From NCBI GenBank assembly GCA_051362555.1, contig CM120641.1, positions 19,902,001 to 19,966,000 of the forward strand: a stretch of 64,000 nt of DNA. Direction: 5' to 3'. How positions within the stretch are numbered: position 1 is the first letter of the stretch; every line of letters starts with the position of its first letter. The notes beneath the pieces are model-generated. The model did no database searches. It was given only the letters and a program-made list of their open reading frames with translations, and had not been told where the DNA came from. This document shows, one piece after another, positions 1 through 62,167 of the stretch. The translations under genes were made by a program, and so were the position numbers. This DNA comes from Lingula anatina. Taxonomy: Eukaryota > Animalia > Brachiopoda.

Positions 1-509
1 ACACACATCAGTCAATTATATGTTTCAATGCTGAATTCCATGGACTCTTGGTACATTAATGACTAAAACATGTAAAATACATGAATGTAATAAAGAAAAA
101 TAAAATGAAAATAGATAAATCTCAGCTTTAGAAAACTGTGTCCAAAGGTCACATGGCACAGATAATTCAATATAAATAGTCTACTATCTCTGAATCAAAT
201 GTCAACAATGACTTGAAACCTCAAAGACAAAGATCACCAGTGCAAAAAAAAAAATCATAGAGAAGCATCATTAAAGATAATAAATAGATAAATCAGTAAA
301 GACATTAAGATAAAACACTGACTCGAATTCCCTGACAATGCAATAAATTATATTCCTTTAAAATACAATTCATGCATTGGACAGCAGATTTCATATTCCA
401 TTAGTCCAACTATCTGTGTGTCTGTCTGCCTGCCTGTCTATCCATTCGCCTCTCCATCCATCTATCCACCTACCTAGATAGGTAGATACATTTATAACAT
501 GTACATTAC

Positions 510-12531
<12,022 letters not shown>

Positions 12532-39059: not shown

Positions 39060-42000
39060 ATGAGTGCCAAGTCGAAAAGAAGCCCCCGTGGCTCAAACAG
39101 TAACTTGACAGAAGCTGACGAAGCTGAAATGGATCGCATCGTCGGACGACCCGACAGTGCCCGCTCCCGTAAGAGCGCATGGGATGAAGATGGAGGCATG
39201 GACAACATGGGGTTTGACCGACCCTCCTCTGCGCGCAGCTACCGCGAGGAAGAAGAAGTCGGACGTATTGAAACCACCGATGATCTGTTCCCCACCGATA
39301 CCAGCATGGATGAGAAGAAGAAAGCCGAAGAGGCCGCCCCACCCTCCGGTTGCTGTGGAAAGTTCTTGGGTGGAATACGATGTAAGTGGAATTATCTGTA
39401 TCATTGCTTTGGTGTTACTTAAACTTGGAAATATGTATATATATTTAACACTGCTCTTAAGCAGAATATAAATTTTAAGAGTTTGAATAAATTTGTAGAG
39501 TGTTTAAGCACTTAAATGGCTATGAGGCGAGACCCCGTTTCTTAACTATTTACAGTGTAAACGTCAGTCATTCCGGAAACGTTCAGTTTTCTTGGTAAAA
39601 TAACCTGGCATAATAAAACATTCATTTGTTGTGTGTATAAGGCAAGAAAAACAGCGAGACTGAAAGGATTTCAGTTCAACCCAGTTCACAATTTATATCG
39701 CTGTCTGTATCGTTTTGATATAAGTAAACGGACCATTTACGTGCATATTAATTCTTCCAAAGATTTGCCCGTTCAGATAACATTCATTTTGGTGGATCTC
39801 TAAATTTGTACAACTGTAAAGACACTAATTTTATTTGATGATGTATAAAAAAGAAAACATGGCATTTAGATTTTTTATCCGTTCAGTTCCCTGTTTTTGT
39901 AGCTTTTTGAATGTTATTTAGGATAAGTGAGAGCTTGAATGCTGCACAATGCAACCTCAAAACATTCTACTAGACAGCCATTACTAAACTTAAGGAAATA
40001 AAGCAACAGATTTTAAACGGGTTTATGAAGATGTAATGTTGTATATGTTATACTTTGTACATAAAGAAACAAAAGGCAATATTCATTGTGTGTTGTTGGA
40101 TGATTCAGAATGATACATGTATTCAATAATATATGTATTGATCAGTGAGAGTTTTAAAGTTTTTAAACTTTAGAAATTAAAAAAATTATATGTTAATGAG
40201 GTTGACATAACCGACAATATGGATACTTTTTTAAACTAAGCATTTTTATCTAAGACTTTACAAATTAAATAAAATTGCATTTTTGTTATGGTTGAAGATA
40301 ATTTTCTTAAAAAATTGCAATGCACATTTATGTACTAATAAAAATTCAAGGAGAAAAAAATAATCTCACCCATTTGCATATTTTTATAGAGCAGTTTTGT
40401 ATATCAGTGAGCTTTCATTTATTGTTTCACTGATGTTGAAAATTAATTATGCCTAATCATGTGTTTGGTTGGCAACATTTGCCTTTCAGCTGCCCTCATT
40501 AAGTTTTGAATCTAATTATCTTATTCCATATTATTATTATTATTATTTCGTATTTTATTCATAATATTTTAAATGAGGTTTGTTTATTGGTATAAAATAT
40601 TTGCAAATATTTTTTTCTTCAAAAACATTCACTTCATATGGGAACTACTGATTATCTTATGTTGTATGCATTATGTCAGTTTCACTTTAATTTCAATATT
40701 ATTTACTTTAATTAAATGTTTGTCACAGTCACGTATTATATATTCATTTCTGCACATTTAGCACTGTGGAGAACCAGAGAGACTGTGGATGCATCAGGCA
40801 ATAAAGATCTCTACATCAAAACCACCCTAAAAGAGCTGATTATTTATCTTCTCTTTTTGGTGGTGTTATGTGTTAGTAAGTACATGTGTGCACTGGCTTT
40901 CTTTAGATTTTAGGTTTGGTTTGGTTTGGTTCTGGTTGGTTTTGGAGTGCTCTGACATTGACTTGCTGAGCATCTATTTAGAAAATATAAAACACCCTTT
41001 TTCATCAGTTGGCACATGTAGATATGACCTCCCTAGCTGTTTCCTGTGGCACCCAGCACTCAGCGTGGTAAGTAAAGTGTGAATCATCTCAGTTTGCAGT
41101 GAGTTTGTCTTACTTTTCTAACTATAACTTCTTCCAGCAATGTGGGCTACTAGACAATTGCAGTTTGAAGAGTCTACAAAAAATCAGGAACTTTACATTA
41201 AAACCACCCTGAGAGAGCTGATAGTGTATATTCTCTTCTTGGTCATTCTGATGGTTTGTAAGTATTCAGATTATATATCCGTTTTAATATAATATATTTT
41301 TATGCCTCAAGATATATTATATTCACTTTAAATTGGTTGGGGAATAATTTTTAAAGGATATAGAAAAAATGCTGAATAAATGAAAAGATATTGATGAGAT
41401 AAATAGTAATTAAGAAATGCAGTACATTTTATTGATCTCACCTTTGTATGAGACTTTGAAATGTTTGATTTTACCTGTTGAATTGATTTTTTTTTTTTGC
41501 TCTTCCCAACCCATAATCATGAATTGCTCCTTTGAAATGTTATCCATCAAGATTCATTCATACATTGATTTTTTGTCCGGTTCACAACATTTGATTGCCA
41601 TTCGATAATGTAATAGAAAGAGAGTACTAAATAATGCATTGAGTATTTGAGTATGCAATGCATTTAGCACATACAACTGAACTTGTGATGAATTTGAGTG
41701 GTGTAGAAAATTAGGAATCATTTTTACAGAAGTGAGATCAGAAATTGACATTTTTTCTTTGAATACGTTATAAAACAACAAAAACATAATAAAGTTAATG
41801 TTTTACTTACTAAATTTTCCACCTTCTCTTGGACACTTTTTTGTGATTTGTAGAGATTTTTCATACTGTTTTTTCATAGACTCTTTCTTTGTGTGGTGTG
41901 TCCAACATTAATGCCAGTAGGTCACTAATTGATATGTAAATGCATTTGTATCCACTTGACTTGGCAGGAAGTGCAACTTTGCCCTTTAGATATTCACTTT

Positions 42001-45000
42001 TCAACCAAAAGATTCTAAGCTTCAGCACCTTGAAGACTGGACTTTTAAGATTTCCATTAAAAAAGTGAACACTTCTTGAAAATCCCATTACTACATGATC
42101 ATTTTTCTCCAAACTAAAAATTGTTATTTCACATGTAATATTTTCTTGAATTTAGTACTGTATACATTGTACTGCACAAGCCTGGAAATAAAAGGGTTAT
42201 TTGTTGGATATAGAGACCATAGACCTCATTACATAATCAGATTCTTATTATTGAAATGTTTGCTTTGGCATTACTATGTGGAACTGTTATGCAGTTACCC
42301 CATCCAGGCTTTTGGCAAAATAAACTCAAGCATACCAAGTTTGTGGAAACTGAAGGCCTACTTTATTAAATGAAAGAATGGTCCCAAAGCTGTTGGTGCT
42401 TGACCCAAGTTATAGAAAAGTGTACCAAATATATGCACTGATATCAGACTGATGAATTAAATAAAATATTATTGATTGTGCTCTGCTTTTTCCTTTTAAA
42501 CTAGGATCTAAAATAAATACAATTTTTGGATATTAGATTAAATAAAAATTAGTGGAAGATTTATCTAGTTTTACCAATATTAATTACAAAGATGGTAATT
42601 TAACACAGTGTTAACTTAATATTTTTTTAATCTAAAATTCTATTTTCTGTTAGTAACCTTTGGCATGACCAGCTCCAACATGTACTACTACACCAAGGTA
42701 ATGAGTGAGCTCTTCTTGGACAACAGCTTTAATTCTAATGGACAGACCTTTCGATCAATTAGCAACCTTGGAGACTACTGGCAGGTTAGAAATATTTTCC
42801 AATGTGTATTTTATCAAAATTAATACTTTTTTCTAGTAAATGTAATGCATTAAAAAAAAAATCTTGTATTGCTTTATTTTAAGCATATTGCAGTTAAATA
42901 TCTGTGGCAAATTACTCAAAACTAGAATTTTTTTTGTTCTTTTTTTGAATGGTAAATTCATAAAGAACATGAATTTTGTTATTTCATTTCAATAAGAAAG
43001 TTGCAGCCAACAGAGGTAATTTTATGACACTGTCTCTTAAATTAAGTTCGCTCGTGGCCCTCTCATGGATGGACTGTACTGGGAAACATGGTACAACAAC
43101 CGCAACGTGTCACAGGATGAACTCGGCTTTATTTTCTACGAAAACAAATTGCTTGGTGTCCCTCGTATCCGTCAGCTGAAGGTTAAGAATGGCTCCTGCA
43201 AAGTGGAATCAAACTTTGGACATGTTATCGATGATTGCTATGGACCATATGCTTCAGGAGATGAGGACAAGTCAACCTTTGGGAAGGCAAATGGAACTGC
43301 GTAGGTTCAAAATTATATTTTTGTGAAAGTTGATTATGAAAGTGTATTTAATTTATTTACTATTATCAAAGCTTTTTTAACATTTAATAAAAGATTTAGT
43401 ACCAACTGATGTAGCACCACATGCAACTGATTTTAAACTAAAATTTTGAGAATATCTGCAAAGGGTAAGAAAATTAGATTTTACTTTTTGAAGTAAAGTA
43501 AAGTTTATAATATATCCCTTTCATGTATAGATATGTTGCTAACTGTTAGAGCCCTATTTTCAGTTGGTCCTACCAAACCTCTGAACAGCTTGATGGCTCA
43601 GGCCATTATGGCATCTTGACCCGCTATGAAGGTGGTGGCTATGTCCAGAAGCTGTCCACAACCAAAGCCAAATCCCTGGCCATCGTTGATGACCTGAAGC
43701 AAAACCTGTGGTTGACTCGTGGAACCAGGGCAGTTTTCACTGATTTCACTGTCTACAATGCCAACATCAATTTGTTCTGTGTCATCAGGTGATTGCCATT
43801 TTTTTCATTGGATATGAAAAGTTAAATGAAATTGAAAAGCATAGATAAATTCATTGAGTAATGAACTCCTTGAATAAATACATGATACAGTGGCAAATTA
43901 TGTGACTTAGGGTATAGGCTATATCAAAATCTTAAAAATAATATATATAATCTATTAGAGTTATAATCATTATTATTAATTTTATTTTTAATTGATTTAA
44001 CTAATTCACCCTTTTTGATGTTATTTCATGATATATTTTAACACATTTTCCAGACTTCTGGTTGAGTATCCTGCCACTGGTGGTGCCCTGTCCTCCTGGT
44101 CATTCCGTACCATCAAACTTATTCGCTACGTGTCAGTGGGAGACTACTTTGTCATGGCTTGCGAATGTATCTTCATTCTCTTCATCATTTACTACATCAT
44201 TGAGGAGGTTTTGGAGGTGAAGTAAAATTTTGAATACTTTAAATGTTAAAACATGTAGGTATGATGACTTTTTATGCCCAAATGATATTTTACTAGTATC
44301 ATAAAACAAACCTTGAAAGTTTGCATTTAACAAAAGTTTTTTAAATTACAGATCAAGAAACACAAAGTGGAGTACTTCAAACACTTCTGGAATGTAGTTG
44401 ACATCCTGGTGCTGGTGATCTCCTCTGTGTGTATTGCCTTCAGTATCTACCGTACCATTGCTGTGGACACCATGCTGGAGAAGCTGCTGGAAAACCCTGA
44501 GGAATTCCCTGACTTTGAGTTCCTCAGTTTCTGGCAGATGCAGTTCAACAGTGCCGTGGCTGTTGCAGTGTTCTTTGCCTGGGTGAAGGTAAATATTGGA
44601 AAATGTGAATAGGGATGCTGTACTATTTTATACAGAAATTTTTAAATTAGAAAATGAGTGTGTTTTATAGCAGCGGGTCATATTCAGGGACACTTTTCTT
44701 TTTTATTTTGACTTATTTTGTTTTGAAAATTATGAAATTATGAATTGATTAAATTGAAAAAAAAATGTAATAATTAAATACTCAAAATAAGTTGAAATTA
44801 TTAATATTGGATTTTTTTATGTAAATTGAGTATTGATCTAATCATGCCCAAAAATGTTGCAACTTCAATTTATGTTTTACAATTTTTATTTCAGGTTTTC
44901 AAGTACATCAGCTTCAACAAGACCATGACCCAACTGTCCTCCACCCTCTCACGGTGTGCTGGTGACTTGGCTGGATTCTTGGTCATGTTCTGCATCATGT

Positions 45001-47490
45001 TCTTTGCCTTTGCCCAGCTTGGTGTGCTCGTGTTTGGAGCAGTGATCAGAGACTTCAGCAACTTCTGGAACGCTGTGTAAGTTAGTTAAGAGACCATTAG
45101 ATTAAAGATGTTTGTATGTCAATTACACTGTATATATGTATTTTTGGGAGATGAGTAGTCTTTTAATCAGATTTGTTTTGTAATTTGAAGACATTCTTGT
45201 AACATCATGCCTGTTTTCTTTAACATCTTTAAACAAAAGTCAAAGTAGTAACAAAACTAATTGTGTTGATATGCATGTTTGAATTTAAGAATATAAAATT
45301 GAATATATGAAGACAATTTGAAAGCAATGAAGTGATTTGGCAATGAAAAACATTTATATTAACAAACGACATATGCTGTTTCAGGTTCACTCTGTTCCGT
45401 ATCATTCTTGGAGACTTTGACTTCAATTCCCTGCAGGACTTCGACAAATTCCTTGGCCCCCTCTACTTCTTCTGCTATGTGTTCTTCGTGTTTCTCATCC
45501 TGTTGAACATGTTCCTGGCCATCATCAATGACACTTACGCTGATGTCAAGTCTGACATAGCTTTGCAGAAGAATGACTTTGAGATGACTGACTACTTCAA
45601 GAAGGTAAGGTAGAAGAAAAACTTTAAAAATATGTTAAATGAACTTTAAGAAATATTTGGTTTAATGCTGGCTTGAAAGTAGTAAAGGCTCCTAAGATTG
45701 GAATAACCAGAGCAGTTATTCAAGTAGTAAACTTTTGTTTTTTGATAAACTATGTATAACATAAACTTTATAAAATTATTAACTTGTGCATTTTAAAGAT
45801 GATACCATAAATGCGATTATTGTATATAATTTATTTTAAATTTACAGGGCTACCAGAAGATGATGGACAAGTTGAATTTCAAGCGTGACAAGATTGTGGA
45901 CATTCAGAAGGCTCTGGCTAGTGCCGACATGGATAATGACATGGTGGTTGACTTTGATGAGTGGCGTACTGAGTTGAAGAAGTGGGTATTGTTTCATTAT
46001 GTCTTTTTTCATTTACTCTTTATCGAGTTTTAGAAGCCATTTGACATCATCTGTTAGTATTTTAACAGTTCAATTGAATGTTGTTGATTATATATGCACA
46101 AAAATAGAAATAGATCTTGGGATTAAAGGAACCAATTTCTGCTGTTAATATTTCAAAAATAATCTTTTTCAAAAATCTTATTTCTAGGCGTGGTTATGCT
46201 GACACTGAAATTGAAGCACTGTTCGCGAAGTATGATGTAGATGGTGACCGTACTTTGGATGAGTCCGAGCAAAAACAGATGGCAGTTGAACTTGAAGGCC
46301 AGAAAGTAAGCATATAATTGTAAAAGAAAAAATTAACAAGATAAAAAACCTTAATTCATCATATCTTTAAATTGGCAAATAATTTAACTGGCTTGTCTAA
46401 TTTTGTTTGATTGTTGTTTAATTGATGGTTGATTATTGTTGTTTGATTGATGAAAATTTTATCAATAACCATGCTTTTTAGTCCTCTTATTCAGTAACAC
46501 AGGGAAATTATTTTTCTCTTGAAAATTTATTCTAGGCCAAACTTGATGAAGAAGAAAATGAAATCGAAAAAGACAAAGAAATGGCACAGGCAGGTCGAAA
46601 AATGGGCGTGACAGTTGAAGAATTCAGTGTCCTACAGCGCAGAGTAGACAGAATGGAGCACTCCATTGGCAGCATTGTTTCAAAAATAGATGCAGTCTTA
46701 GTCAAGTTAGAAGCCATGGAAAAGGCCAAATTAAAACGAAGAGAAACAATGGCAAAAATATTGGACAGTATCACAGAGGTGTGTGTTAATGATATTTCTG
46801 AAAGATTTCAGTGAAATGAGATCATTATGAAACAGGAGGAGAAATAATGGCATAAAATACTGTATTCCACGGATTTTAAAAATTCACTTTTTTCATAAAA
46901 AAAACAGAAAGAAATAATAAACAAATGTGCATTTTAAGGTCATTTCCTTCCCATTATTAGTGCCTGGCCTTGAGTATTTATATTCTTTATACAACCAATT
47001 AACCACCATTTTGAAAAAGAAAATTAAAACTACAGATAAAGAAACACATTTTCTAATCATCTTTAAAGGCTGACGGTCTTGATGATGAAGAAAAGCGAGA
47101 CCAAATGGAAAGACTAGTGAGGGACGAATTAGACAAATGGGACCAAGATATAGAGACCAACAGCACAGGTGCCTCCTCGGGCTCGGACAGATCTCGGACA
47201 GCTAGCTCAAGACCACCTTCATCAGGATATGTTGGGGTAAGCATTGTTAAATAAATATTTTGAAAACAAGACTTAAAATTAAAGTAATGGATAAAATACA
47301 TAGGGTATTTTTGTAATTATTGCAGTTCAAGTATTATCTTCTTGTAATGCCAGAAATATGAAAATTTAGTTAACTTTTGTTATTTATAATGGTCACGTGA
47401 TCTGATGTGAGAGGTAACATTTTTCAAATGGTTTAAAATGATGACATTGTAATGTTTTTATACTTTGTTTGCTAACAGTCGGACTTCTAA
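39060..47490 (+). CDS. PKD2: Polycystin-2 / TRPP channel, paralog A (~840 aa)
   Basis: Exons 39060-39381, [40762-40875 or 41138-41257], 42654-42784, 43047-43300, 43564-43788, 44054-44216, 44352-44588, 44895-45076, 45385-45604, 45848-45981, 46188-46305, 46536-46778, 47069-47236, 47479-47490. Motifs [46 protein letters not shown], pore [22 protein letters not shown], two EF-hand loops, coiled coil [25 protein letters not shown]. Confidence 0.93.
40762..40875 (+). CDS. PKD2: PKD2-A exon 2a (pre-S1/S1), one of a duplicated pair
   Basis: tag...GTAAGT, phase 1-1, 114 nt: [38 protein letters not shown]. Confidence 0.85.
41138..41257 (+). CDS. PKD2: PKD2-A exon 2b (pre-S1/S1), one of a duplicated pair
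   Basis: cag...GTAAGT, phase 1-1, 120 nt: [40 protein letters not shown]. Confidence 0.85.
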
Positions 47491-47500
47491 ACATGAAAAG
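47479..47500 (+). CDS. PKD2: PKD2-A stop-containing micro-exon (SDF*)
   Basis: ctaacag|TCG GAC TTC TAA ACATGAAAAG|gtatg; homologous to 61896-61920 in paralog B. Confidence 0.7.
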
Positions 47501-50500
47501 GTATGCTGATCTGAACGTTATACCTATTTGAATATTTGTTGTTGTCTATAGTTTTCTTTGGTTTATTTTTTCTTCAGTTAACTTTTTTAAAATTCGTTGT
47601 GATTGATTAATTTGTTTTTAAAATGCAAAATAGCAATTTTTGCTTGTGATTTTAAGCTATTCGTTATATTTTAAATCGACTTTAAAGTATCATTTAAAAA
47701 CACCCGCCTTGCGCCAAGGAGTCTGTTTTGGTTGAACGCCGTTTAATCTTGTAAACTTTTCGCGTGTTTCTGTTTGGGCTACGATTGGTGTTCGTTCAGT
47801 TCTCCCTTTTTTCAGTCAGTTAACACTGCCAGAAAAGAGACTGCGCTTTCCCTTGATTCATTGTGTAGTGCTCATTCTTTCATGTTGAAATTTATACTCT
47901 GACGTAAATGCTTGAATGACTAGTTCGATTAATCAATCTCAATTGTGTCACGCCCAGTGGAACATAATTGAAGTGTAAACTGTTTTGGACAGGTATAAAC
48001 AGTGCTTTCAGTTGGTATTGATTAAACCGCCCCTAGGGAAATCATTAAATAAAAAAGTCGAGACACATTTGCAGACAAGGTAGCGATTTTAAATTCGATC
48101 GGCAAAATCAACGAAATGAATTATTTTCACTGTGTAAATCTTAGATGACATTTATAAAATCGCTATGAAAATATCCTCTGTTAGCTTTACAAAATAAAAT
48201 CTGTACAGACTTAAAAACAACCCTGTTTTGACGTTTCACCTTGAGATGAGAAAGGTGGCAAAAGTTGAATAATAAGTTTAGCTGAACGATACGTTATGTC
48301 GCCAGCCACAACAATTCGAATTTTATCAAGCTCAATTGGTAAATAAACGAACCATTCACCCATGAGAGCTTGTTCGTTTGTCTGAGCAGTCTTATTTATT
48401 TCTTTGATATTCTGACTTTTCTTTTCAGGATCGGGTTTACCAAAACAGAAAAGATTCAAGTCCAGTGTGAAATCGGCATATACGGCAGATGCCTACCGGT
48501 ACCAACCAGTTATTATTGAGATTCTGTTTTCGTTCAATTTCAATTAAATAATCCGTCCGGGGAAACTTCAAGTGTCAAGAACTACCTTTTGCCACGCACT
48601 GTCTGAGAGCGTGACCTTCACGACCACCCTTCGTGATGCGAAAGAAAAATACGTAAATGGCAAAATATAGCGTTATTTATCAAAACTTTTCCTTGACATG
48701 GACTGTTGACATCTTGAACGTCTTTTCATCAGAGTAGCCAGAATGAAATGCAACAATGTGCAATGGTCAATGTCACTTCAAAACAGCATCTACTTAAAAA
48801 GAAAAGAAGTCTGCATTGCGCGTGACTGGGAGTGAAGCAGGGTTAATTATTTATTGAGAAATGAGCGTTTTTCAGCCGGTCTGAAATGCGTTTAATTTGC
48901 TGGAGAAACGTAACTGTCTGGTCGTGCATTATTTATAAACAATTACTGTATCCATATTTATTTGTCTCATCGAAAAAACATGAAATACTCTGCCGATGTG
49001 CAAGTCTTATGTTGGATTTGTATCTATACTAGTGATATATCTATTTTTGAGTCGTTAATAGGCTTCTCGTATATATTTACAAATGTCTTCAAAGACATGC
49101 TTATCAATGTGAGATAATGTGATATTACTTGTAGGGCAATTATTTAATGAGTGGTGTCTAAAAATATTATTTTGTTCTACACTGCATTTACTTGTCAGGT
49201 TTTAACGTAAGAAAGTGAATGGTAAAGATTAGCAGCGCTTCATAGCGAGTTACTGCAACAGGTTCCTAACTGGTATGTCTATATATTGAGGTCGAGTTGT
49301 AAATTTCGCAAAATAAATGACACTATTCTTCTGTTCTAATTCTTACTGTTTCGGTCCTTCGGGTACTTTGTATATGATGCACTTTGCTTTTCCTGTTTTC
49401 TGCAGCAATAAAAGCAATTAAAATTATTTGAAAGAGTTTTTTATTTGTTTGTTTGTTTGTGATGATTTAGTCGAACTCCCTTAGATATTTAACTCTGAAA
49501 TTTATTGATTTATTTAAGATTTTGGCAGATACCTACCATGTGTTTAGGCAAAATGGTAGGCCTACCACTTTTTAATATCGGATTTACGACGGTTAAGTCT
49601 CCAAAGGAGAAATGTGCGAGCGTCTAAACTTTATCTTGGTCATTAATACGCTCGACAGTGTCGAATTGGCTTTTGGTAACATTTTCACATTTTCTAAGAT
49701 TTGAAAATATATAAATTGCTTTTTACGATGTGAGAAAAGAAAAACTAAAATGATAATATAATAACTATCTAATAAATTTTATGAAGTAAAAAAATAAATT
49801 ATGATTTTAAACAAAAACCTCTTCAATCAATCTAATTGTTGGACAAATCGACCAATAGGCAAATTAGTAAATGTAATTGATTTGCACGTTCTCATACTTT
49901 TGCCTTGATTTTCGTTAATTGCTAGACTCCATTTGATATTACAAAAATCTCAGTAAAATCTTGAATTATCCAGTCAATTCACAAGAGATATAATAAGGTA
50001 AACCTTTTGGCCATTAGTTCAGAGATGAATAAACCGGCATAAATTTTTCCTTTACGAATGTCAATCGATATTTCAGTTATCATTTATTAGAAAAATAGCT
50101 ATAAGATGATAAAATTAGAAAACGTTACAAAGAAAAGTTGGGAAGCACAATAAATAAAACTGAAAATGTAAAGTGGACGTTGTTATACGTCAGCAAAAAC
50201 GCGACCAGGCGATTAAAACTTCTCCAATAAAACATTTTTTAATCTTTGTTTAAAGTCCTTGAAACAAACTCCATTTTTGTCTTGAATTTAGATAACGACA
50301 CAAGGCATCCACTTAAGGTCAGCATAGCAAAATCAGACAGATGCAGTTGATTTAATACTTTGAAATATCCACTTTTGTTCAACACCACAAAGTCAAACAT
50401 CGAGAGGTTATCTCGGGCGAACCAACATTTATGCTTTCTTTTCATTTCTTTTTATCCCAACTGTTTAGAATCGCCGTTCTTGCTGGCGAATAACCGTGAT

Positions 50501-50927
50501 ATGTATGTAGTTTGAGTTATACTGTTATGAGTAAATCTATAAAGAAAAATACGATGAATGAAGATGATAATAATTAAGAAGTCTTGATACTCATGCTAGA
50601 CAGATAAATAGGCCTATCGAAGAGAACATATCCTTGTTTCCGTATGGTAATTAGAAATTTTATGGATTTAATTTCTTCTTTTTCATGTTACAGGTGAAAC
50701 ACAACACTTATCGAATAGTTGCATTTAAAAAGGATGATAAATGAATGATTGATTTGAGATATTGATCTACTGAATTATTATTCGTGAGGACCTTTACAGA
50801 TGAAAAAGAACCCAGTCTTCATTGATTATTAATAAAACAACTATAAAAACGGATTCCAATTCTCGTACGTGGGGTACAGACATTGATTTGCAATGCAACC
50901 TGAACATTTTAAGTTATAAATCCATAA

Positions 50928-52305
50928 CAGGGACGGATCCAAGATAATTTGAAAGGGGGTTCACGCGTGCGAAGCCGACCCCCCCCCAACCCCACCCCAC
51001 TTGGCGTGGGGTTCGGCCCGCTGAAGGGCCCCGGAAATTTTTGGTATTTTAGAGGGCGAACGGTGCCATTTGGTTCGGTTTAGAGCGATGATTCAGCTAG
51101 TCAAAATTCTAATTACAAGAGCTGACCAGAAATCAAAGGGGGGCTCCCACGTAAATTTGAAATTTGTCACCACCCACGTTTTACCCCCACGTTATGTGTA
51201 ACGTTGCACCAACGTTACTTTGAACGTGGATCCCATGTTAACTTGTAAGAAGTTTGAACGTGGCAGCAAAGAAATATTGAAAGTAGATTCTACGTAAATT
51301 TGTAAGAGTTATGAACGTGGAATACACGTTGAAGCTCCACTTTACCTATAATGTGGCAGCATCATTAATTTGAACGTGGATCCCACATAAATTTGTAACC
51401 GGTTTGAACGTGGAATACATGTTGCAGCTCCACTTTACCTATAACGTGGCAGCAACGTTACTTCGAACGTGGCGCTCACATAAATTTGTAACCGTTTTTC
51501 ACGTGGAATACACGTTTCACCCCCACGTTACCTATAACGTGGCAGCAACGTTACTTTGAACGTGGTGCCCACGTAAATTTGTAAGAGTTATGAACGTGGA
51601 ATACACGTTGCAGCTCCACGTTATCTATAACGTGGCAGCAACGTTACTTGGAACGTGGCGCTCACGTAAATTTGTAACCGTTTTTCACATGGAATACACG
51701 TTTCACCCCCACGTTACCTATAACGTGGCAGCAACGTTACTTTGAACGTGGTGCCCACGTAAATTTGTAAGAGGTTTGAACGTGGAATACATGTTGCAGC
51801 TCCACTTTACCTATAATGTGGCAGCAACGTTAATTTGAACTTGGTGCCCACGTTAATTTGTTAGAGGTATGAACGTGGAATAGGCCTACACGTTTCAGTT
51901 TCACGTTACCTATAACGTAAGAGGTTTGAACGTGGTATACACGTTACGTGTACGTGGCAGTGACGTTACTTTGAACGTGGTGCCCACGTAGATTTAATTG
52001 TAACCGTTTTTTTCGTGGAATACATGTTTCAGCTCCACGTTACCTATAACGTAGCAGCAACGTTACTTTCAACGTGGTTCCCACCAGGGGCGGATACAGG
52101 ATTATTTGAAGGGGGGGGGGGGGGTCCGCAGATGCGAAGCCGACCCCCCCCCCCCCCCCTCCTACTTCTCGTGGGGCTCGGCCCGCTGAAGGGCCCCGAC
52201 AATTTTTGGTATTTTAGAGGGCGAACGGTGCCATTGATTCAGCTAGTCAAAATTCTAATTACAATAGGGGACCCCCCTGACCCCCTCCCTCTAAATCTGC
52301 CACTG
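50928..52305. mobile_element. Composite non-autonomous DNA transposon: 5' MITE copy + 93-bp tandem array + complete MITE
   Basis: Ends CAGGGACGGATC ... AATCTGCCACTG form imperfect TIRs, flanked by CATAA direct repeats at 50923-50927 and 52306-52310. Segments ~50928-51118 and 52085-52264 are homologous (gcgaagccgacccc...cggcccgctgaagggcccc...gattcagctagtcaaaattctaattacaa). Confidence 0.7.
51145..52084. repeat. 93-bp tandem minisatellite, ~10 copies, built from AACGTG..CACGT palindromic sub-repeats
   Basis: ggcagc anchors at 51355, 51448, 51541, 51634, 51727 and 51820 are exactly 93 bp apart. Confidence 0.95.
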
Positions 52306-53006
52306 CATAACTCCCCTTCCCAAACGGTCTGATTAAGACTTCTTCGATGTGATATTTTTTTCTATAATGCAATTCATATCTCGTTGGTAATAAACACTTT
52401 TACAGTCCCCAGATATTGGACAAGAAATTGTATTTTAATCAGAAAAAAAAAAACTGTAAAGAGGGGGGTCTATTTTGTCGTCATGAGCACTTCCTCAATT
52501 TTAAAATAAACAGTCAATACACGAGTATTATGCTGATGTTAAATTTGTTATAAAATATTTAGTAAGCTCTTAAAACAACATAAAGCTTTGCATCTAGAAA
52601 AGATCCATGGTATTTTTTTAAGTCGTGGACTTTTGTCGACTTATCTACTTTCAGCAGGGTAACAGATTTAAAAGTTGTTTTAAGAAAACAATTTAAAATC
52701 CTGTTATTATCAGATTTTTGTTGTTCTACTTTCTTTTGACTCCCCTTGACCATTTTCTATTTGCGAACGGCTGCGTGTTCCACAGTTCGGTTGGTAGAAT
52801 CCATATTTTAGTGACGTCATTTAATCTCAAGGGAGCCATGTTCTGTTGTATTTGTAGACAGGGACTGACACAGCGGTCGATATTTTCTCATTAAGGTGGG
52901 CTTTTGCTGAATTGCAGGTGAATATTAAAGTTGATTTATCGAGGATCGAATAGAAACTACTGAGCAAGCGCAAATCGAAGAATCTGACGGTGGTTGGGAC
53001 TTTAGT

Positions 53007-56000
53007 ATGAGTTCAAATTCACACAGAAACAACCGCACTTTGCAAGAAGAGGTGGAAATGTCGAACAGAAATCGCCCTAGCAGTGCCCAGTCAAGGCAAG
53101 CCTGGTCGGACGACGGGAGCGACCGCCCGGACTCACGCCAGGGACGCGATGGAGGTTTTCGGGAGGATGCCGATCTGTCTCTCCCCGCAGCAATGGAAAG
53201 CGACAACTACCTGAATACCGTCTGCGTCCAAGAGCGTGATGAAGTGGAGGTGCAAGATAACTCCAATGGTTGCTGGGCCAAATTCAAGAGAGGTGTCAGA
53301 TGTAAGTTGTAAAGATGCTAGCATTTCCTACATTTTAAAATAAATATACACTGCTGTTACTGTGCCCCAAATTTTCTTGAATTTTTAGAAGAAACTTTTT
53401 TTTTTTTTTTGGGGGGGGGAGCTTAGTTTTGTGAACAATGCCAATGGTTTAATACGTTCTCTAAAACACCTCAAGAAAGATAATGTACAAAATAAGATTT
53501 AATGTTAGATAAAGCATCATGTTTTGATGGATGACCGAAAAAGAACATTTATAACTCATTGTGGGATTTTCATCGCTAGGGTAAAACATAAAACATTTCC
53601 ATCCTAGATCTGACCTGTTACTTTGCTTGAAAAATTTATTGAAATTTTTTGTCAGGTGGCAGGTCAATGAAATATATATAAATATCAGTAGTATTATGTA
53701 AAAATAAATAATGCCAAGGGAAAAAATATGTATGATTTTATTTTGTGCTAAAAATGAATAAGTAAAAGTATCTTATAATTCTTTTTCCCGAAATTTTAAT
53801 ATACAGACAATTCTAACTTGCCAGTGGAAAGAAAAATACTGTTAATGTTAAAACATTGAAATATAGACAGTGGATATTTGTTCATAGCTGAACAGTATTT
53901 GTTAAAAGGAGATCAGAGTTTATCCAACTTTTTTTTTTAATTTGCTTGCTGCACTTATTAAGCCATTCCATTTGTGCTAAGAAAAGTTTTCACTAGTGAT
54001 GCGAAAAGGTTTTTATTTACACATTTAGACAAACTTTGTCATAATTTATTGTGTTAAAGCAAGACCGAATCATCACATCATCAAGAAAGTTTGATTGCCA
54101 AATATTTGAATTATTAGCTTCATAAACATATAATACGTTGCACTATATGGACATAAGTTTATTACATAAAATCTCATCTGTGTTTACTTTAAATTACTTT
54201 TGTGGGAGTGAAGTAACAAAACATTTTTTCATTACAAAAGAACAAGCCGATTGAAAGTTGTAAGGGTGCGAAACAAATTACTTATTTAGGTTTATGCATA
54301 TGAAGGCCTTCAAAACATAATAAGGTTTAAAGTTCTATTGAGATATTTACCATTTTTGGTGTATGGTTTATTATAGAAACTACAGACAGTAAATCCTGAA
54401 TTGGGTTCACTTGATTAGGTTCCTTAAACAAATTGCTTTGAATTCAGATGTAAGGTTGTTGGGTTAATTGTTATTATATTTCAAAAATCATATAAACAAA
54501 GTATTTTATATGAATTTTTGCACCAGGGCATGTTTAACTTTCCATTCTTCATCAGTATGATAAAATTTTCTACAACCAAATACATTCTTTTCTTTTCTTT
54601 TATTTCGAATTTGTATATTTATGTGCTCATTATAAATGTTCTTAAAACTTGTTAATTATACTCCTGTACAAAATACTGAATGATTTATAAACATACAACT
54701 TTTATGGAATAAAAATTATTTACTCTTTTACATACTCTAAGATTATATTTTCTTGCCAGATTATCATTCACTACTAACTTCTTACATAGGTACAATGAAA
54801 CTTAACATATTCCAATTAAAACTTCACATTTTATAGCTATTTGGCAAACCAAGGATATGCAGGATGAGGATGATGACAATAAGGACTTCAAAGTGGTCAC
54901 AACCATACGAGAACTGGTCATTTATCTCGTATTCTTGTTGGTTCTTGTTGTTTGTAAGTAAAGGATACTAAATCCTGGACGTGCATGTGTTGATATTGTG
55001 TGTACTTTATTTTCCAGTTGTATTTATTTTGTTTTATTATATTTGTATTTTCTTTTTGATGTTGTCTTATTTAGATCCTGATATAGATCAACACAGAGGG
55101 GTTGTACCACCAAGCAGAGATTCACCTTTTGTTTATAGTGCATTATTATGTCTCTTGTGTTTTTATTTTATGGTTTATCTGTCTCCCTTAAAATAGCACT
55201 TTGGGCAACCAAGCACACTGAAGACACCAAGACTGATCGAGAACTCTATGTTAAAACCACTTTGAGAGAGCTGGTTATCTATCTTCTTTTTCTGACTGAT
55301 TTGACTATTTGTAAGTATTTGTGATAGTGCATTTTAGTTTGTAAATATGTTATTGCACTTTTCTGTCCTGGATATATGTTTTTTTCTCTCATTTTAAATG
55401 GTCAATCTATTTTTTGTCACTTTTTTTTGTCTTGCAGTAGAAAATGTTAATATGTTGACATGTAACTTTTACAATTTAATGATTGTTTTTAGTTTTAAAA
55501 AAATTGAATTTAACCAATTTGCAAGTTGAAGTATTTGTACTTAGAACATGCTAATGCAATTTTTAACTCCCAAGCACAAAACACGTAACGTAAAAGTGAA
55601 TTGAAAATTAGTGATTTATATAACATATTTAAAAAAGAGCATTAAAAAAAAGAGTGGAATGAAGGACTAAATGAATGTGTTCCAAAAGCCATTTTGATGG
55701 CACAGTGTGTTTGGTAATGGCAAACTAGGTGGTGGTAGACTTGCACAGGAAAAAGAAGATCGATGTTACCTGTGTGCTTGACAAAATCAATATGCAATTA
55801 ATACTGTGCTTGCTCACAGACCCTGGAAATTAGACAATGATACTGTTAATCCAAAATCAATTATTCAGAGACTGGCATAGAAATAATGTCTTTGTCAAAC
55901 AGTTTCTATTCAGAAGAGGCAGTAGTTGCTACAAAACAGTTATATCTGTTTTAGCTATGATCATCGATTGTGCCGTTAATGTTCTGAAGTTTTACAGCCG

Positions 56001-59000
56001 TCAGCTTTGTAAAGTTTCTAGCTATTAACTTGTTCAGTAATTTGTCCCATGGTGTTCTAATTGCATATTTTGAAATTATAGATTATTGGAATGGCATGAT
56101 TAATTATTGACCTTTACAAAATGATATTGGTTATTAATTGTGAAAATCATTTGAGCTAGAAAATGTTTTTTTTTTTTTTTTTTTTTTTTAATTGGGCAAA
56201 AAATCCATGAATCATGACATTTCTTTTGGGATAGAGTTTTTGGACTTTTGCCAAAAAAAATTTTTTTTTTGGTCACACCTCTCTGTACGTCATGACATCA
56301 ATGGCAGTGAAGTTAATTTGAGATACATGCAAGATATCCATTGCTTTTTAATTACTGTTAGAGTGCCAATCAATATAACTTCATTTCAAGTTTGCGTGCT
56401 TACAAGGAAATGACCAAATGAAAGTGCATAATTCAGTACTTTGTGGGAAATAATATCCTTATTTTTAACATAACCAGGAAATTTTATAGCAGTCTCTAAT
56501 GGCATTACCAAAGTTAAAGCATACAATAACAATGAAAAATAACAAGACACGACACTAGAAAAAGTATTTGTTTTTTGATTTCATTAAAAAATTTTATCAT
56601 AAAAACAAATGGTTAATTTATATAAAGCTCTTGTTTGGATATATGATTTTTGGTAAAAGGTAAATATAAGAAAATGTCTTAAAATGGTAGTTACATTGAA
56701 TTTTCTCTTCCTTGTCTTGGCTACAGTTATTGTGATTGACTGATGGCCACTAAAAAGGCTATAAGGGCGAGTCCAGTATGCATGACACCGACACTGAGAA
56801 AAAAATATATATATGTAGAAAAAGAATTAATTTATTTATAATAATCAATTAACTAATACTTTCTGAAGTTATTATTATAAGATTAAGTTAATAAAATTCC
56901 TCATCTTTAAACCTTAGTGACCTTTGGCATGAACAGTGAGACTTACTACTACTACACTAAGGTGATGAGTGAACTGTTCTTAGATGGTCAGTTTGCCGAC
57001 ACCAAGAACACTTTCCGAGGAATGACTACAATGCAGGACTTCTGGAGGGTAAAGATATGCTTATATTTATACAGATTTGAGATTTTATTTATTGACATCA
57101 AGAATGATGGCATGTTAAATTAATGATATGAGGAAAATAGATGTATTGATTGTGGAATTTATAACAAAATGCAAACAAATAAATTAAAAGATTTTAAGTA
57201 ATAAATCATGGAGGTAATTAAATTAAGAATTAAAGAAAAAAATGAGTTGTCTTTAGTCTTATTTTACTTCTGCCTCAAATAACAGTCAACCAGTCACAGA
57301 AGTTGAAAACTTCATCATTACTATATGAATTGCTGAATTGCTCTTACACTACAAATGTCTAATAACATTTACAGTTTGCCGAGGGACCTCTGATGGACGG
57401 ACTTTACTGGGAAAAATGGTACAATGGACAGAACGTCAGTGACAGCCAACTTGGATACGTCTTTCATGAGAACAAACTCCTTGGTGTCCCTCGCCTGAGA
57501 CAGCTGAAGGTCAGAAACGACTCCTGTGAAGTTCATGATGACTTCAAGAATGAGATCAAGACTTGCTATGATGCCTATGCAGAAAGTATAGAAGACAAGT
57601 TTCCGTTTGGGAAAATGAATGGGACGGCGTAAGTAACCTTAATTTGAACATTCATAGTATCCAGCAAACAAAAAAATACTTATCTTTTTCAAATGTTTTT
57701 TCTTAATTAAGAAGCTTGAGCAACATTGTGTACATTGTATGTGATGTCTTATTTTGTAAAGTTTCTCACTTGGCAAAAAAGGCATGTTGAATAAAAAACA
57801 GCACCTGTAATGTGTAAGTCATCTTTTTTCAGTTGGGTCTATCAGACTGAAGATGAACTGGACGGCTGGGGACACGAAGGTTTGATAAGTGAATACGGTG
57901 GAGGAGGTTTCGTCCAGAACCTCTTGTTGACCAGGGAAAAGACTGAGCCCATCATTGCTGACCTGAAACAGAACCTTTGGCTGGACCGTGGAACCCGAGT
58001 CGTCTTTGTAGACTTCACTGTGTACAATGCTAATATCAACCTGTTCTGTGTTATCCGGTAAGCTACTTTGATCTCAACAGATTTAGGGATAAAAAGCAGG
58101 TACCTGGTAAATGTTTTACATTGTCTAAAGCTTGCAAAAGTAACTGCACAGTAACTGTTCTAACGAGACCCTTTGGTTAACTTTTGCCATTTAGCTCAAA
58201 ATTATGAGAGAGAAAATCTGGTCTTTTAGGTGGCAATTAAAATGAAACAAGTGTCATAATACTATGTGCGCATTAAACAATTTTAAAGAACATTCTTTGT
58301 GTTTTGAGTTGTCTCTGACATTATGTTTTCAGACTGGTTGTGGAATTTCCTGCCACTGGAGGAGCTATTCCATCTTGGTCTTTCCGTACAGTCAAGTTGA
58401 TCCGCTATGTGTCCATTGGAGACTACTTTGTACTGGCTTGCGAGGGCATTTTCTTGTTGTTCATCATCTACTACATCATTGAGGAAGCATTGGAGGTGAG
58501 AAATTTGTTAATGAACATTACTAATATTTAATTTTATACATTCTGGTTTAGAATACAAAGGTGATGGGATTTGACACATAAGGTAACAGAACTTTAAAGC
58601 TTGTGAATAAAATGCATTTCTGTTTGGCAAAAAAATGGTACTCCTTAAGATTTTTAACTTCGCATGATGTGTTCTACAGAGCATTTATCTTCATTTTCAG
58701 ATTGCCAAGCACAAGTGTCAATACTTCAAGAGCGTCTGGAACATCCTGGATATCGTCGTGATTGTGATCTCTGTGGTCTGTACCGTGTTCAATGTGTATC
58801 GGACCATAGCAGTAGGGAACATGCTGGAATCGCTGTTACAGAAACCGGATGAATTTGCCGACTTTGAGTTCCTTAGCTGGGCTCAGGTCCTGTTTAACCA
58901 GGGCATTGCTTTTGCCGTCTTCTTCGCTTGGGTGAAGGTGTGAAAATTTGCTATAACAAGATTTATATATTTTTGTATAGAATAATCATTTCAAAAGGTA

Positions 59001-59635
59001 TCAATACTGCATGACTACTTAACATTTTGAATAAATGACCACTTTCAGTAAGCATTATGAAAAATATTGTAAATATCTGTCTTGATATTTAGAAGGGAAA
59101 AATTCAATATTTTTCATATTATTACATCTAATTAAAATCTTGTGAAGTTAATTCTCTAATTACGTATCACAAAACTGAGTTACTTTGTGTAATAAGGAAG
59201 TATATTGATGCACAGTTGTTACAATTTTTTCCAGATTTTCAAGTACATCAGCTTCAACAAGACTATGACCCAGCTCTCCTCCACCATTGCTAACTGCGCC
59301 AAGGACTTGGCAGGATTTGGTGTCATGTTCTTCATCATCCTGTTCGCTTTTGCCCAGCTTGGTTACCTGATCTTCGGTACCCAAGTCAGGGACTTCAGAA
59401 GCTTCCCTGACACCATGTAAGTGTCCACATTCATCAATTCTTCTTATGAGCCTTTTTATTTAGGTGCATAAAAATGTTATGTGCCATATTCAATAAAGCG
59501 TCTTCTTTTTGATGAAAACCCCAAATTTGCAGCAGTATTTTTATGGCCATGCATTGAATATTCTTACTATAACATGGAAGCGAACTGAAATTGAAAATTT
59601 TGTTGTAATTTGTATTCATGATTTAATATAATGTA

Positions 59636-59703
<68 letters not shown>

Positions 59704-62167
59704 TTTCAGCCTTACCTTGTTCCGTATCATCCTTGGTGACTTTGATTTCCATGAGCTGGAAGCTGCCCACCGTGTTCTGGGTCCACTGTATTTCCTCCTG
59801 TACGTGTTCTTTGTATTCTTCGTACTGCTGAACATGTTCTTGGCCATCATCAACGACACTTACTCTGAGGTGAAGGCTGATCTGGAGAACCAGGAGAATG
59901 AATTCGAATTGCAGGACTACTTCAAGAAGGTAAATCAGTAGGCTGAAAACACTTGGCAATGTTTTTTCATTACCTTCTGGCTGGGTATATCATTTTATTG
60001 AATCTTGGGTAAGAAATTATATAAAAAGCACTACTGAAGCAGACAACAAGGAGTTAAAGGGCTTATAGTGTTAAATTTGGATTTTATTGACAAAAACAAA
60101 ATTTATATTTAAGTTTGTTTGTTTTCTAGGGCTACGACAAGATGTTGGACAAACTGAAGTTCAAGCGTGATAAGATCATTGACATCCAGAAGGCCATTGT
60201 TGATGCTGACGCCAATGCTGACAAGCAGATTGACTTTGATGAATGGAAACGTGACCTGAAAGAGTGAGTTGTCATATGTGGAAAATTTCTCCATAATGAC
60301 TTTAAATTGTTTTTAAATTATGTTCTATTTCAATGACCTCAAAAACAGTTGTTAAAAAGTTTTTTCTTACAGATAGGCATCAAGATCAGATACTTATATG
60401 AAAGTTTATTTTCTTAGGAGTTGAGAGCAGGAAATGATATGTTTTCTATTTCTTTTCAGACGTGGTTATGCTGACAGTGAAATTGAAGCTGTGTTTGCCA
60501 AATATGACTTGAACAATGATCGTATGCTTGATGAAGAAGAAATCCGCAAAATGCAGGAAGAACTGGAAGGACAAAGGGTAGGAAATGATTTTTACCTAAA
60601 GATTATAAGAAGTTTTACAAGTTTGTTGACAGTATATGGATAGTTCTATGAATCTTCATGTGCTAAATGTTTAAAGATACAGATGTAAAGATATAGATGT
60701 TTAAAGATGCAGATGTAAAGATATAGATGTTTAAAGATATAGATGTAAAGTAAAGATAATTAGAGAAAATATTTTGTTTTTCAAAAAAGTTAACTCCTAA
60801 TCAAAATGGAAGTATGTCTTTTCAAATATAAACGTATTCTTCCTTTAGATGGCAGTTGACAAGGAATTTGAAGGTCTTGAAAACAAAGAAGGAGAAGCAG
60901 CAGCCAGACCAAAGAGTTCAGCCCGTCGCAGATCAGCCAGACCAGGTAGTCGGAAAGGAAGCAGCAGATTCAGTTTCGGAGACGACAGTGGTGATGATAG
61001 CGATGATGAAGACAGTGGAACACGATCAGGAAGAACAGGACGCTTTGTCAGTGGTGTATCATATGAAGAATTCACAGTCCTCTCTAGGAGGGTAGACAGA
61101 ATGGAACATTCTATAGGCAGTATAGTATCCAAGATAGATGCTGTTCTTGTCAAATTAGAAGCCATGGAAAAAGCAAAATTAAAACGAAGAGAAACCATGG
61201 GGAAAATATTGGACAGTATCACAGAGGTAAATTTCAACACTGTGATTTCCTTCTTTTGTAAAGTGAAAAAGTAATATATCTTTTCACCATTTCTTCCTTT
61301 GTATAACCATTTATTGTTTGTACAGCCTGTTCAAGTGAACAAAAGTCTTTCAAGATTCTCTTTGCTTTTCTTTGGGGAAGCTGCTCCTTTTGAAAATTAA
61401 AAAATTTGAGGTTTCTGTGATGATTTCTATAGATATTAAAATTTGTGCCAATTGGTGGAATTATGCGACAAGAGCATTCTTACATGTAATTTTACATTGA
61501 CTTTTCAGTCTGAGGGTGTAGGGGATGATGAAAAGCGTGACCAAATGGAAAAACTTGTCAGAGAAGAACTTGAGAGGTGGGACTCTGAACCATCCATCCA
61601 ACAGAGTGGCCGTGGTGCCTCGCCACGCTCCCCACCATCTGGTGTAAACGTAAGTTATTTTACATCACTAGCTGAATTAAACTAATTTTAATATTTAAAA
61701 ACACATATAGAAAATTCGTCTACCCCCTTGAGATAAGGGATTAAAATGCAGTTTGTATAAGGATGAGAAAAAAAAAAGAAGAGTTGTGTTTAGAAATTTG
61801 CATGGAACTGTAGATGAATAATAATAATATTTATATATGTCAAAGTGGAATTGTATGTGAAAGTTTACACAGTCATTATTATTATTTACATGCAGTCATC
61901 TGAAGTGTAAACATGACAAGGTAACATAAATGTGATTTTTTTAATGTCTTGTTTTGATGTCTGTCATGGTTACTCTTATGAATGTCTGTTTCACCATCAC
62001 TGGTAGGATATTAATTAATGCATGTCTGTTATTAAAAAAAATTTTCATTTAAGTGTTTTGTGCTTTTTGAGTAACTTCATTTGCCCAGCAATAACACTTA
62101 TCTGTTATTAAAGATCTACTTTTCCTTTTTTTAGGACACAGACCAAATGGGATCACACAATGTGTAA
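53007..62167 (+). CDS. PKD2: Polycystin-2 / TRPP channel, paralog B (~870 aa)
   Basis: Exons 53007-53301, [54837-54953 or 55197-55310], 56918-57048, 57375-57628, 57833-58057, 58333-58495, 58701-58937, 59235-59416, 59710-59929, 60130-60263, 60460-60577, 60849-61226, 61509-61649, [61896-61920 optional], 62135-62167. Exons 3-11 have the same lengths as in paralog A and the same TRPP motifs. The start could instead be the Met at 53058. Confidence 0.93.
54837..54953 (+). CDS. PKD2: PKD2-B exon 2a (pre-S1/S1), one of a duplicated pair
   Basis: tag...GTAAGT, phase 1-1, 117 nt: [39 protein letters not shown]. Confidence 0.85.
55197..55310 (+). CDS. PKD2: PKD2-B exon 2b (pre-S1/S1), one of a duplicated pair
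   Basis: tag...GTAAGT, phase 1-1, 114 nt: [38 protein letters not shown]. Confidence 0.85.
59641..59698. repeat. (TA)29 microsatellite next to the PKD2-B exon 9 acceptor
   Basis: Direct reading; acceptor AG at 59708-59709. Confidence 0.95.
60668..60750. repeat. Short tandem repeat (aaagatatagatgt variants)
   Basis: About 5 copies of a 14-16-bp unit in PKD2-B intron 11. Confidence 0.8.
61896..61920 (+). CDS. PKD2: PKD2-B stop-containing micro-exon (SSEV*)
   Basis: tgcag|TCA TCT GAA GTG TAA ACATGACAAG|gtaac; phase 0 after exon 13. Confidence 0.7.

Follow-up and report, generated by a model that had tools for sequence, protein, structure and literature searches.

The 64,000-nt window of Lingula anatina genomic DNA analyzed here (GCA_051362555.1, contig CM120641.1, positions 19,902,001 to 19,966,000; positions below are those of the window) contains two tandem plus-strand PKD2/TRPP paralogs, gene A and then gene B, and each carries the exon encoding pre-S1 and S1 (exon 2) as two consecutive homologous copies, 2a and 2b. 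These copies represent a real, constrained, and probably mutually exclusive exon pair; its ancestry and the mechanism of exclusion are unproven. As a whole, it is moderately likely that the pair has been kept by selection in both genes, is likely used in a one-or-other manner, likely arose once before the gene split, and, as predicted from the encoded segment, tunes channel gating.

Duplicated exon 2 in two tandem PKD2 genes

The four exons lie on the plus strand where they were originally predicted, each with AG before it, GTAAGT after it, an open frame, and phase 1-1. In gene A, exon A2a (40762..40875, 114 nt) and exon A2b (41138..41257, 120 nt) both encode the pre-S1 Trp, the linker, and S1; A2a has a weak acceptor and donor and belongs to RefSeq isoform X2, and A2b has a strong acceptor, is the form seen in RNA, and belongs to isoforms X1 and X3. 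In gene B, exon B2a (54837..54953, 117 nt; RefSeq isoforms X1 and X3) encodes an acidic linker (net charge -4) and Val at the column of D113 in human PKD2L1, and exon B2b (55197..55310, 114 nt; isoform X2) encodes Asp at this column. The spacer introns were confirmed at 262 nt in gene A (40876..41137; GC content 0.40 vs 0.22–0.27 in other short gene A introns) and 243 nt in gene B (54954..55196), the latter with TGCATG at 54982 and no other AG in its last 60 nt. Introns before, within, and after the pair measure 1380/262/1396 nt in gene A and 1535/243/1607 nt in gene B, and the ten other introns of each gene 135–326 nt. The four exon peptides match one another at tblastn E values of 2e-7 to 2e-11 and have 10 of 39 columns invariant, and tblastn detected no third or decayed copy in the 64 kb (next-best match, E 0.10). 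An NKD motif had been described as shared by the upstream exons; its K and D are indeed confined to the a copies, and its N is also present in A2b.

Human PKD2 has a single such exon, as had been stated: exon 2 spans c.596-709, with 114 nt and phase 1-1 (splice-variant table, PMC11355194). Because of this size and phase, the duplicated unit is equated with the ancestral single exon. Human PKD2 shares the exon 2 boundaries of the Lingula genes, and human PKD2 and PKD2L1 share their domains and key residues but carry the exon once. From the alignment with human PKD2, exon 2 covers the last part of pre-S1, a loop, and the greater part of S1 (model helices 98–109 and 122–150); the AlphaFold model of isoform A-2a, a low-confidence one (mean pLDDT 60.6, pTM 0.43), served to place helix limits only.

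The identity of both genes is supported at several levels. A gene A exon is a 100% match to L. anatina polycystin-2, and a gene B exon is a 100% match to the protein annotated in Lingula as polycystic kidney disease 2-like 1. The exon model of gene A agrees exactly with RefSeq XP_013419430-432 up to the last exon, and that of gene B differs from XP_013419422-424 by one substitution and the last exon. The two proteins are 62% identical (508/814 columns). The Polycystin (TOP) domain PF20519 was detected in gene A (E 3e-15) and gene B (E 5e-17) and PF08016 (PKD_channel) in a gene A exon (E 4e-18), and both domains are present on the full-length proteins of the two genes; furthermore, alignment to human PKD2 yields E 1e-247. 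A quick full-length tree of 42 rows places both genes in the spiralian PKD2 group, with branches of 0.83 for A and 0.38 for B and without resolution of A+B sisterhood. The columns of W81 (pre-S1 Trp), K568 (TRP-like Lys), and D523 (filter aspartate) are kept in all four isoforms. By domains, tree placement, and key residues, both genes are PKD2/TRPP channels, channel activity being predicted.

All four exons are, by their substitution patterns, under purifying selection. The dN/dS ratio, proposed as a check on whether an exon copy evolves near 1, is 0.20–0.54 in 6/6 pairs, below 1 in each, at dS of 1.0–2.1. All indels among the four exons are in frame, and the Trp, the ELxxYxxFL motif, and the splice sites are intact; when neutral decay was simulated with 20,000 trials for every start exon and 0.5 substitutions per site, the frame, splice sites, Trp, and ELxxYxxFL jointly survived in 0.005–0.015% of trials. 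Identity to outgroups is 42% for B2a, the most diverged of the four, 66% for B2b, the closest to the ancestral state, and 70% for the gene B core. Among the population differences listed, one falls inside A2a and is synonymous.

Transcript evidence comes from gene A, to which four of the nine RNA runs listed for the species were mapped; runs X7 and X9 were informative, and runs X1 and X4 gave two reads and none. The X7 and X9 reads are mostly 95–99% alike to gene A, pointing to a diverged population that carries this species label. Among joints, which are listed at no fewer than 3 reads, coding exon 1 (39060..39381, ending in phase 1) is connected to 2b (39381->41138) by 11 reads in X7 and 12 in X9, and 2b is connected to the constitutive exon 3 (42654..42784, end of S1 and start of the TOP domain) by 9 and 15 reads, giving totals of 23 and 24. 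Exon 2b is thus the major gene A form in the sampled RNA, and 2a is at best minor. Three X9 reads cover position 40781 inside A2a: should one 150-nt read extend in from the preceding intron, the remaining two would account for approximately 71 bases, and the minimum of three other differences that they carry equals the number present in the final 115 nt of exon 1. This depth arithmetic and these matching differences fit, indirectly, one or two molecules in which exon 1 was spliced to 2a, below the listing threshold. In RefSeq, every isoform contains a single copy (3/3 for gene A and 3/3 for gene B).

Several observations weigh against regular use of both copies in an exclusive manner. No joint with 2a (exon 1 to 2a, 2a to exon 3, or 2a to 2b) and none from exon 1 to exon 3 is among the joints listed for gene A in the four runs; with approximately 12 junction reads per informative run, double inclusion below approximately 10–20% is compatible with the data; the RefSeq isoforms, on which gene B splicing and A2a use rest, are automatic models; and the MetaClust model UPI00078A2781, of 890 aa, carries A2a and A2b joined together. 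The predicted mutually exclusive use accordingly stands for 2b alone in gene A reads and for the one-exon RefSeq models of both genes, and routine use of 2a and of the gene B exons is annotation-based. A functional one-or-other pair in both genes is nevertheless quite likely, and two other readings of the same data fare less well. A2a and B2a might be minor or recently silenced copies of little function whose RefSeq isoforms mirror rare splicing, as the missing 2a joint in gene A, the weak A2a acceptor, and the low outgroup identity of B2a relative to the gene B core would suggest; dN/dS below 1 in every pair at dS of 1–2, in-frame indels, intact motifs and splice sites, the synonymous nature of the lone listed difference in 2a, and the RefSeq placement of 2a in 2/3 gene B isoforms render this quite improbable. 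Even less credible, and in our estimate very improbable, is frequent inclusion of both exons to yield a subunit with an extra pre-S1/S1 segment. The a+b form is in frame and one Lingula and one Macrostomum model join both copies, but 23/23 listed exon 1 joints lead directly to 2b, 6/6 RefSeq isoforms are single-copy, and an extra helix would be expected, from PKD2 topology, the alignment, and the low-confidence model, to place the TOP domain on the wrong side of the membrane. Gene predictors often fuse tandem exons.

Origin of the exon pair

The exon duplication had been proposed to predate the gene duplication, and the four-exon trees are consistent with this order without establishing it. 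Grouping of a with a is the best of the three possible trees with both protein and DNA, with a RELL support of 0.54, and Asp shared by both a exons contrasts with Glu at the same column in 19/19 outgroups. The motif common to the b exons is the ancestral state and is therefore uninformative on grouping. No sign of recent gene conversion between A and B was detected, codon identity being 0.42–0.61 along the gene, and the synonymous sites are near the saturated A-B baseline of 0.52. A single origin is favored on the grounds of parsimony and of the parallel layout of the two genes, namely long flanking introns and paired last exons. Long flanking introns were also considered as a hallmark of the exon pair; this notion is weakened by their occurrence at single-copy loci as well (e.g., L071 and L044), which also counts against the argument from layout. 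The vertebrate PKD2/PKD2L1 split as a separation of an ancient exon pair was considered and rejected, the case being limited to one Asp column that is absent in A2b, with the exon tree unsettled; Asp at the D113 column of B2b and PKD2L1 more likely reflects convergence.

A number of results speak against the proposed order. The approximately unbiased (AU) test rejects none of the three trees (p 0.17–0.66), leaving the by-gene tree at 0.17 with protein and 0.42 with DNA, and adding outgroups leaves the four-exon tree without resolution. The a-type Asp also occurs in 4/61 other distinct linkers and at single-copy loci (e.g., L019-L021 and L050). Furthermore, both gene B exons carry a derived Lys where 18/19 outgroups have Arg, and this shared Lys, together with the 77% identity of A2a and A2b over 84 nt, fits independent duplications or conversion within each gene. 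A single exon duplication before the gene duplication is plausible and, though unproven, likely. The same functional switch might instead have come about by independent duplications in A and B, by copying between the genes, or by within-gene conversion, the exon being a recurrent target. The survival of the by-gene tree and the shared Lys of gene B favor such a history, as do the description of independent origins of such exons in ion channels (passages of PMC9741552) and a Macrostomum gene model with the same segment twice, the second copy of which groups with Macrostomum paralogs (SH-aLRT 97) and looks independent. Two strikes on the same one of approximately 13 exons in adjacent genes would nevertheless be needed, 80/80 other loci being single-copy, and the a-with-a tree remains the best, with no trace of recent A-B conversion; we consider recurrent origin possible but rather unlikely and retain the single early duplication as the preferred history.

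The distribution of the pair in other animals was surveyed by searching 1.84 billion representatives with a four-exon profile, which gave 348 matches, of which the best 150 were examined. Four proteins among these have two matched stretches. One of them, P0224 of Macrostomum lignano (UniRef A0A1I8IWX8), has two full tandem pre-S1/S1 segments ahead of exon 3 sequence, identical at 23/37 positions, and each of the remaining three is a short read-through ORF that lacks a complete second segment. The grouping of its second segment with Macrostomum paralogs suggests that the Macrostomum duplication, known from a gene model alone, is independent of that in Lingula. Among metagenome matches, no second exon copy was found in 80/80 loci of other animals, the best of 102 confirmed matches; this negative is partial, as the 80 comprise 17 loci classed as spliced transcripts (one probably wrongly) and 63 genomic loci (38 distinct peptides), of which three reach from exon 1 through exon 3 and 22 (16 peptides) include exon 3 together with either exon 1 or no less than 700 nt of upstream sequence. 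The exon 2 boundaries lie at the same place across the genomic loci within L001-L080, and this constancy at loci from many animals indicates that the exon 2 unit is old and stable. The exon swap was also absent from the isoform sets of nine other clusters and of seven more (15 of 40 Mytilus members), two further clusters being single proteins; one Owenia protein also differs beyond exon 2 and probably derives from another locus or allele. A wide pairing of the a-type exon in animals was considered and rejected: A2a-like peptides among the best 150 of 348 matches sit in the single-copy loci L016 and L019-L021 and in transcript L009, and are lineage variation of a single exon.

Choice between the two copies

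The manner in which only one copy would be included was examined for frameshift, steric hindrance, U12 incompatibility, folding, and pairing. Forms with a, b, a+b, or neither exon contain no stop in either gene model, in agreement with the claim that joint inclusion keeps the frame, and elimination of a+b through frameshift-induced nonsense-mediated decay (NMD) thus finds no basis. Incompatibility of U2 and U12 sites is likewise absent by comparison with the minor-spliceosome (U12) consensus, all donors near the pair being GTAAGT and all acceptors AG. Steric hindrance operates when the branch point of the second exon lies within approximately 50 nt of the first donor. The predicted branch point of A2b (41118..41122, plus strand) is a CTAAC match with its A at -17 and a distance of 246 nt to the 2a donor; in gene B, the predicted TTGAT at +40 has other AGs downstream of it, far ahead of 2b. 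Going by these predicted branch points, steric hindrance is unlikely in gene A and unsupported in gene B, in keeping with the original prediction that the spacers look too long for simple steric exclusion.

RNA structure yielded limited signals. The spacers fold no better than shuffled sequences (z +1.7 and -0.1), a donor-hiding stem in gene A reaches p 0.11, and shared-site pairing scans gave at best 1–2 of 25 shuffles in 4 of 8 tests, a coarser null. A search for docking and selector elements, as had been recommended, returned one weak candidate in gene A, with no gene B counterpart or competing partner: 40073..40108 in intron 1 would pair with 41079-41110 upstream of 2b (plus strand, -36.6 kcal/mol) and loop out 2a. 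This duplex is reached by 1/200 query and 1/200 target shuffles and was picked from 16 scans. Intron sequence conserved between A and B was not found beyond AT-rich chance matches, a result that counts against the main reading. The active exclusion device regarded as implied by the original prediction was hence demonstrated in none of the forms examined.

The splice sites themselves provide another indication. All four alternative donors are weak, scoring 2.1–2.4 vs 4.1–10.5 for 24 constitutive ones; in gene A, the acceptor of 2b, at 7.8, greatly exceeds that of 2a, at 0.0, matching the use of 2b in reads; a caution attaches to these scores, which derive from a small matrix built on genes A and B only. 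Possible regulatory handles are the GC-rich spacer and an extra donor at 41068 in gene A and TGCATG at 54982 in gene B, which we take to be an RBFOX motif; the frequency of TGCATG in the window is 0.4 per kb. In the proposed mechanism, the weak donors would leave each of the four exons in need of help to be spliced; in gene A, 2b would be the default through its strong acceptor and CTAAC branch point, and a cell-type-specific RNA-binding protein would turn 2a on and 2b off. Any rare product including both exons would be removed by the quality control of membrane proteins and not by NMD. We give even chances to an exclusion that depends mainly on protein regulators of weak splice sites. Long-range RNA pairing of the Dscam/srp type, in which the 40073-40108/41079-41110 duplex loops out 2a in competition with a pairing that frees 2a, is unlikely by comparison. 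Its energy, its rank among shuffles in each direction, its fit with 2b as the default, the unusually GC-rich gene A spacer, and the existence of a described mechanism (parts of PMC4691838) speak for it. Against this, it was chosen from 16 scans, further windows of 60 nt attain -36 to -42, gene B has no counterpart, and neither the spacer folds nor the donor-hiding stem stand out from shuffles. The resemblance to Dscam and srp (PMC4691838) consists of an exon pair with long flanking introns and one upstream candidate pairing in gene A; it differs in that the Lingula pairing is without a competing partner, paralog conservation, or significance after the number of scans.

Two further observations concern the gene A introns. 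The spacer contains a possible cryptic exon at 41009-41067 (plus strand, 59 nt, frameshifting) with a good acceptor, followed by the strong extra GTAAGT donor at 41068, 53 nt before the 2b branch A; a few X7 and X9 reads fall in bin 41009-41073, with no joint, and gene B has no counterpart. Reads of X7 and X9 lie within the intron after 2b (41434-42520) and are absent across most of intron 1; slow splicing, retention, or an intronic 3′ end are possible.

Predicted function, related channels, and the surrounding window

The a and b versions differ in the loop after the conserved Trp, and the columns of human PKD2L1 W81, E103, R343, Y344, D349, E356, D523, D525, and K568 are kept in all isoforms, Y438 being Phe in both genes. 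TRPP background was drawn from parts of PMC12799467. The contact W81-K568 (W201-K688 in PKD2) is described as required for gating and opposed by PIP2 (passages of PMC6483072), and the L117 carbonyl at the end of S1 is described to help bind Ca2+ in the voltage-sensor cleft (passages of PMC8357825). The D113 column lies one turn from L117; its Asp in B2b, as in human PKD2L1, is unlike the other invertebrate rows of alignment A1, and A2b, too, lacks Asp. The linker charge of B2a is outside the range of -2 to +2 of 61 other linkers, whereas that of B2b is 0. Three exon-like ORFs of non-vertebrate appearance (P0330, P0354, and P0370) also have Asp at the late-S1 column; a late-S1 Asp may have arisen more than once.

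From these sequence features, we infer that exon choice tunes channel gating. Both versions would keep the Trp latch of pre-S1 to the TRP-like helix, and the swap would alter the charge of the cytosolic linker and the outer end of S1, shifting gating or cation sensitivity and not the pore. A point against a role for the Asp switch is that D113N is reported as wild-type-like in oocytes (part of PMC4621500), so that the switch may matter little. A bolder proposal is that the TRPP pre-S1/S1 exon is a recurrent spiralian splicing switch, present in two old Lingula paralogs and separately in Macrostomum, by which gene B toggles between a PKD2-like S1 (Val, with an acidic linker) and one resembling that of PKD2L1 (Asp at the D113 column, a turn below the Ca2+ cleft of the voltage sensor). 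At this S1 column, Val is found in tenrec PKD2 and D113 in human PKD2L1, and Lingula gene B has both as alternative exons. The proposal is speculative and, in our judgment, doubtful; were it true, splicing in a brachiopod would do what gene duplication did in vertebrates, and natural isoform pairs would be at hand for dissecting pre-S1/S1 control of TRPP gating.

Ion channels are enriched in duplicated mutually exclusive exons, which have repeated origins and often persist in both paralogs (parts of PMC4494069 and PMC9741552). In SCN2A/3A/5A/8A/9A, CACNA1C/D, and GRIA1-4, as in Lingula, a homologous internal exon pair of the same phase is present in both paralogs under purifying selection (same sources); in contrast to those channels, the Lingula unit is the pre-S1 and S1 of TRPP, in a brachiopod. 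Within the TRP family, exons 10a and 10b of Drosophila and Anopheles TrpA1 are mutually exclusive and immediately precede the transmembrane region, and their choice alters gating by chemicals and heat (passages of PMC11471635); TrpA1, however, belongs to another TRP subfamily, and function in Lingula PKD2 is predicted from sequence. In ASIC1 and ASIC2, the first transmembrane helix is exchanged through alternative homologous exons, which both paralogs have retained (part of PMC4494069), but they are 5′ exons of an unrelated channel family, whereas the Lingula exons are internal. The supplement of the human catalogue PMC8373072 contains no match for PKD2, TRPC, TRPM, TRPV, or MCOLN, with 16 for CACNA1C as control. 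In agreement with the original prediction, no report of an S1 exon switch in TRPP was found in the literature listings, mostly of open-access sources and with the supplement checked only for PMC8373072. The TRPP case is thus new relative to the reports found; the class is familiar from ion channels, and the isoforms already exist as automatic RefSeq models. Surprise is further limited by the confinement of the case, so far, to one brachiopod and one flatworm gene model. The gating of TRPP channels, in which both the Trp latch of pre-S1 and the outer S1 end are implicated (passages of PMC6483072 and PMC8357825), is poorly understood; isoform pairs that differ only in 37–39 residues, selected in paralogs 62% identical, offer ready tests of the role of this segment.

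The remaining coding exons of the two genes are arranged in parallel (all on the plus strand). The other shared exons of gene A (43047..47236) encode the TOP domain, S2-S6, the EF hand, and the coiled coil. Gene B, in its gene model, further comprises coding exon 1 (53007..53301, ending in phase 1), the constitutive exon 3 (56918..57048), and other shared coding exons (57375..61649). According to RefSeq, each gene has two alternative last coding exons, at 47479 and 48429 in A and at 61896 and 62135 in B, of which the proximal adds 3–4 and the distal 10–13 residues in both genes. Isoforms 7–10 residues apart also occur in the Patella, Lineus, Tubulanus, and Ciona clusters, and may reflect the same last-exon event. 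The acidic, Ser-rich linker between the EF hand and the coiled coil is mostly absent from A (exon 46536-46778, 243 nt) and present in B (60849-61226, 378 nt).

Between the two genes, positions 51292-51882 hold 6.4 copies of a 93-bp tandem repeat, with similar GC-rich stretches at approximately 50950-51140 and 52100-52260; the repeat region looks like a repeat or mobile element. Elsewhere in the window, cysteine-rich EGF-like repeat exons at 391-7278 on the minus strand resemble those of a MEGF10/11-type gene, and exon-sized ORFs at 24048-30294 on the plus strand may represent an ADAM10/17-type metalloprotease gene. Furthermore, a 492-codon Ser/Thr-rich open frame with a hydrophobic end at 34259-35737 on the minus strand resembles an exon of a mucin-type membrane protein.

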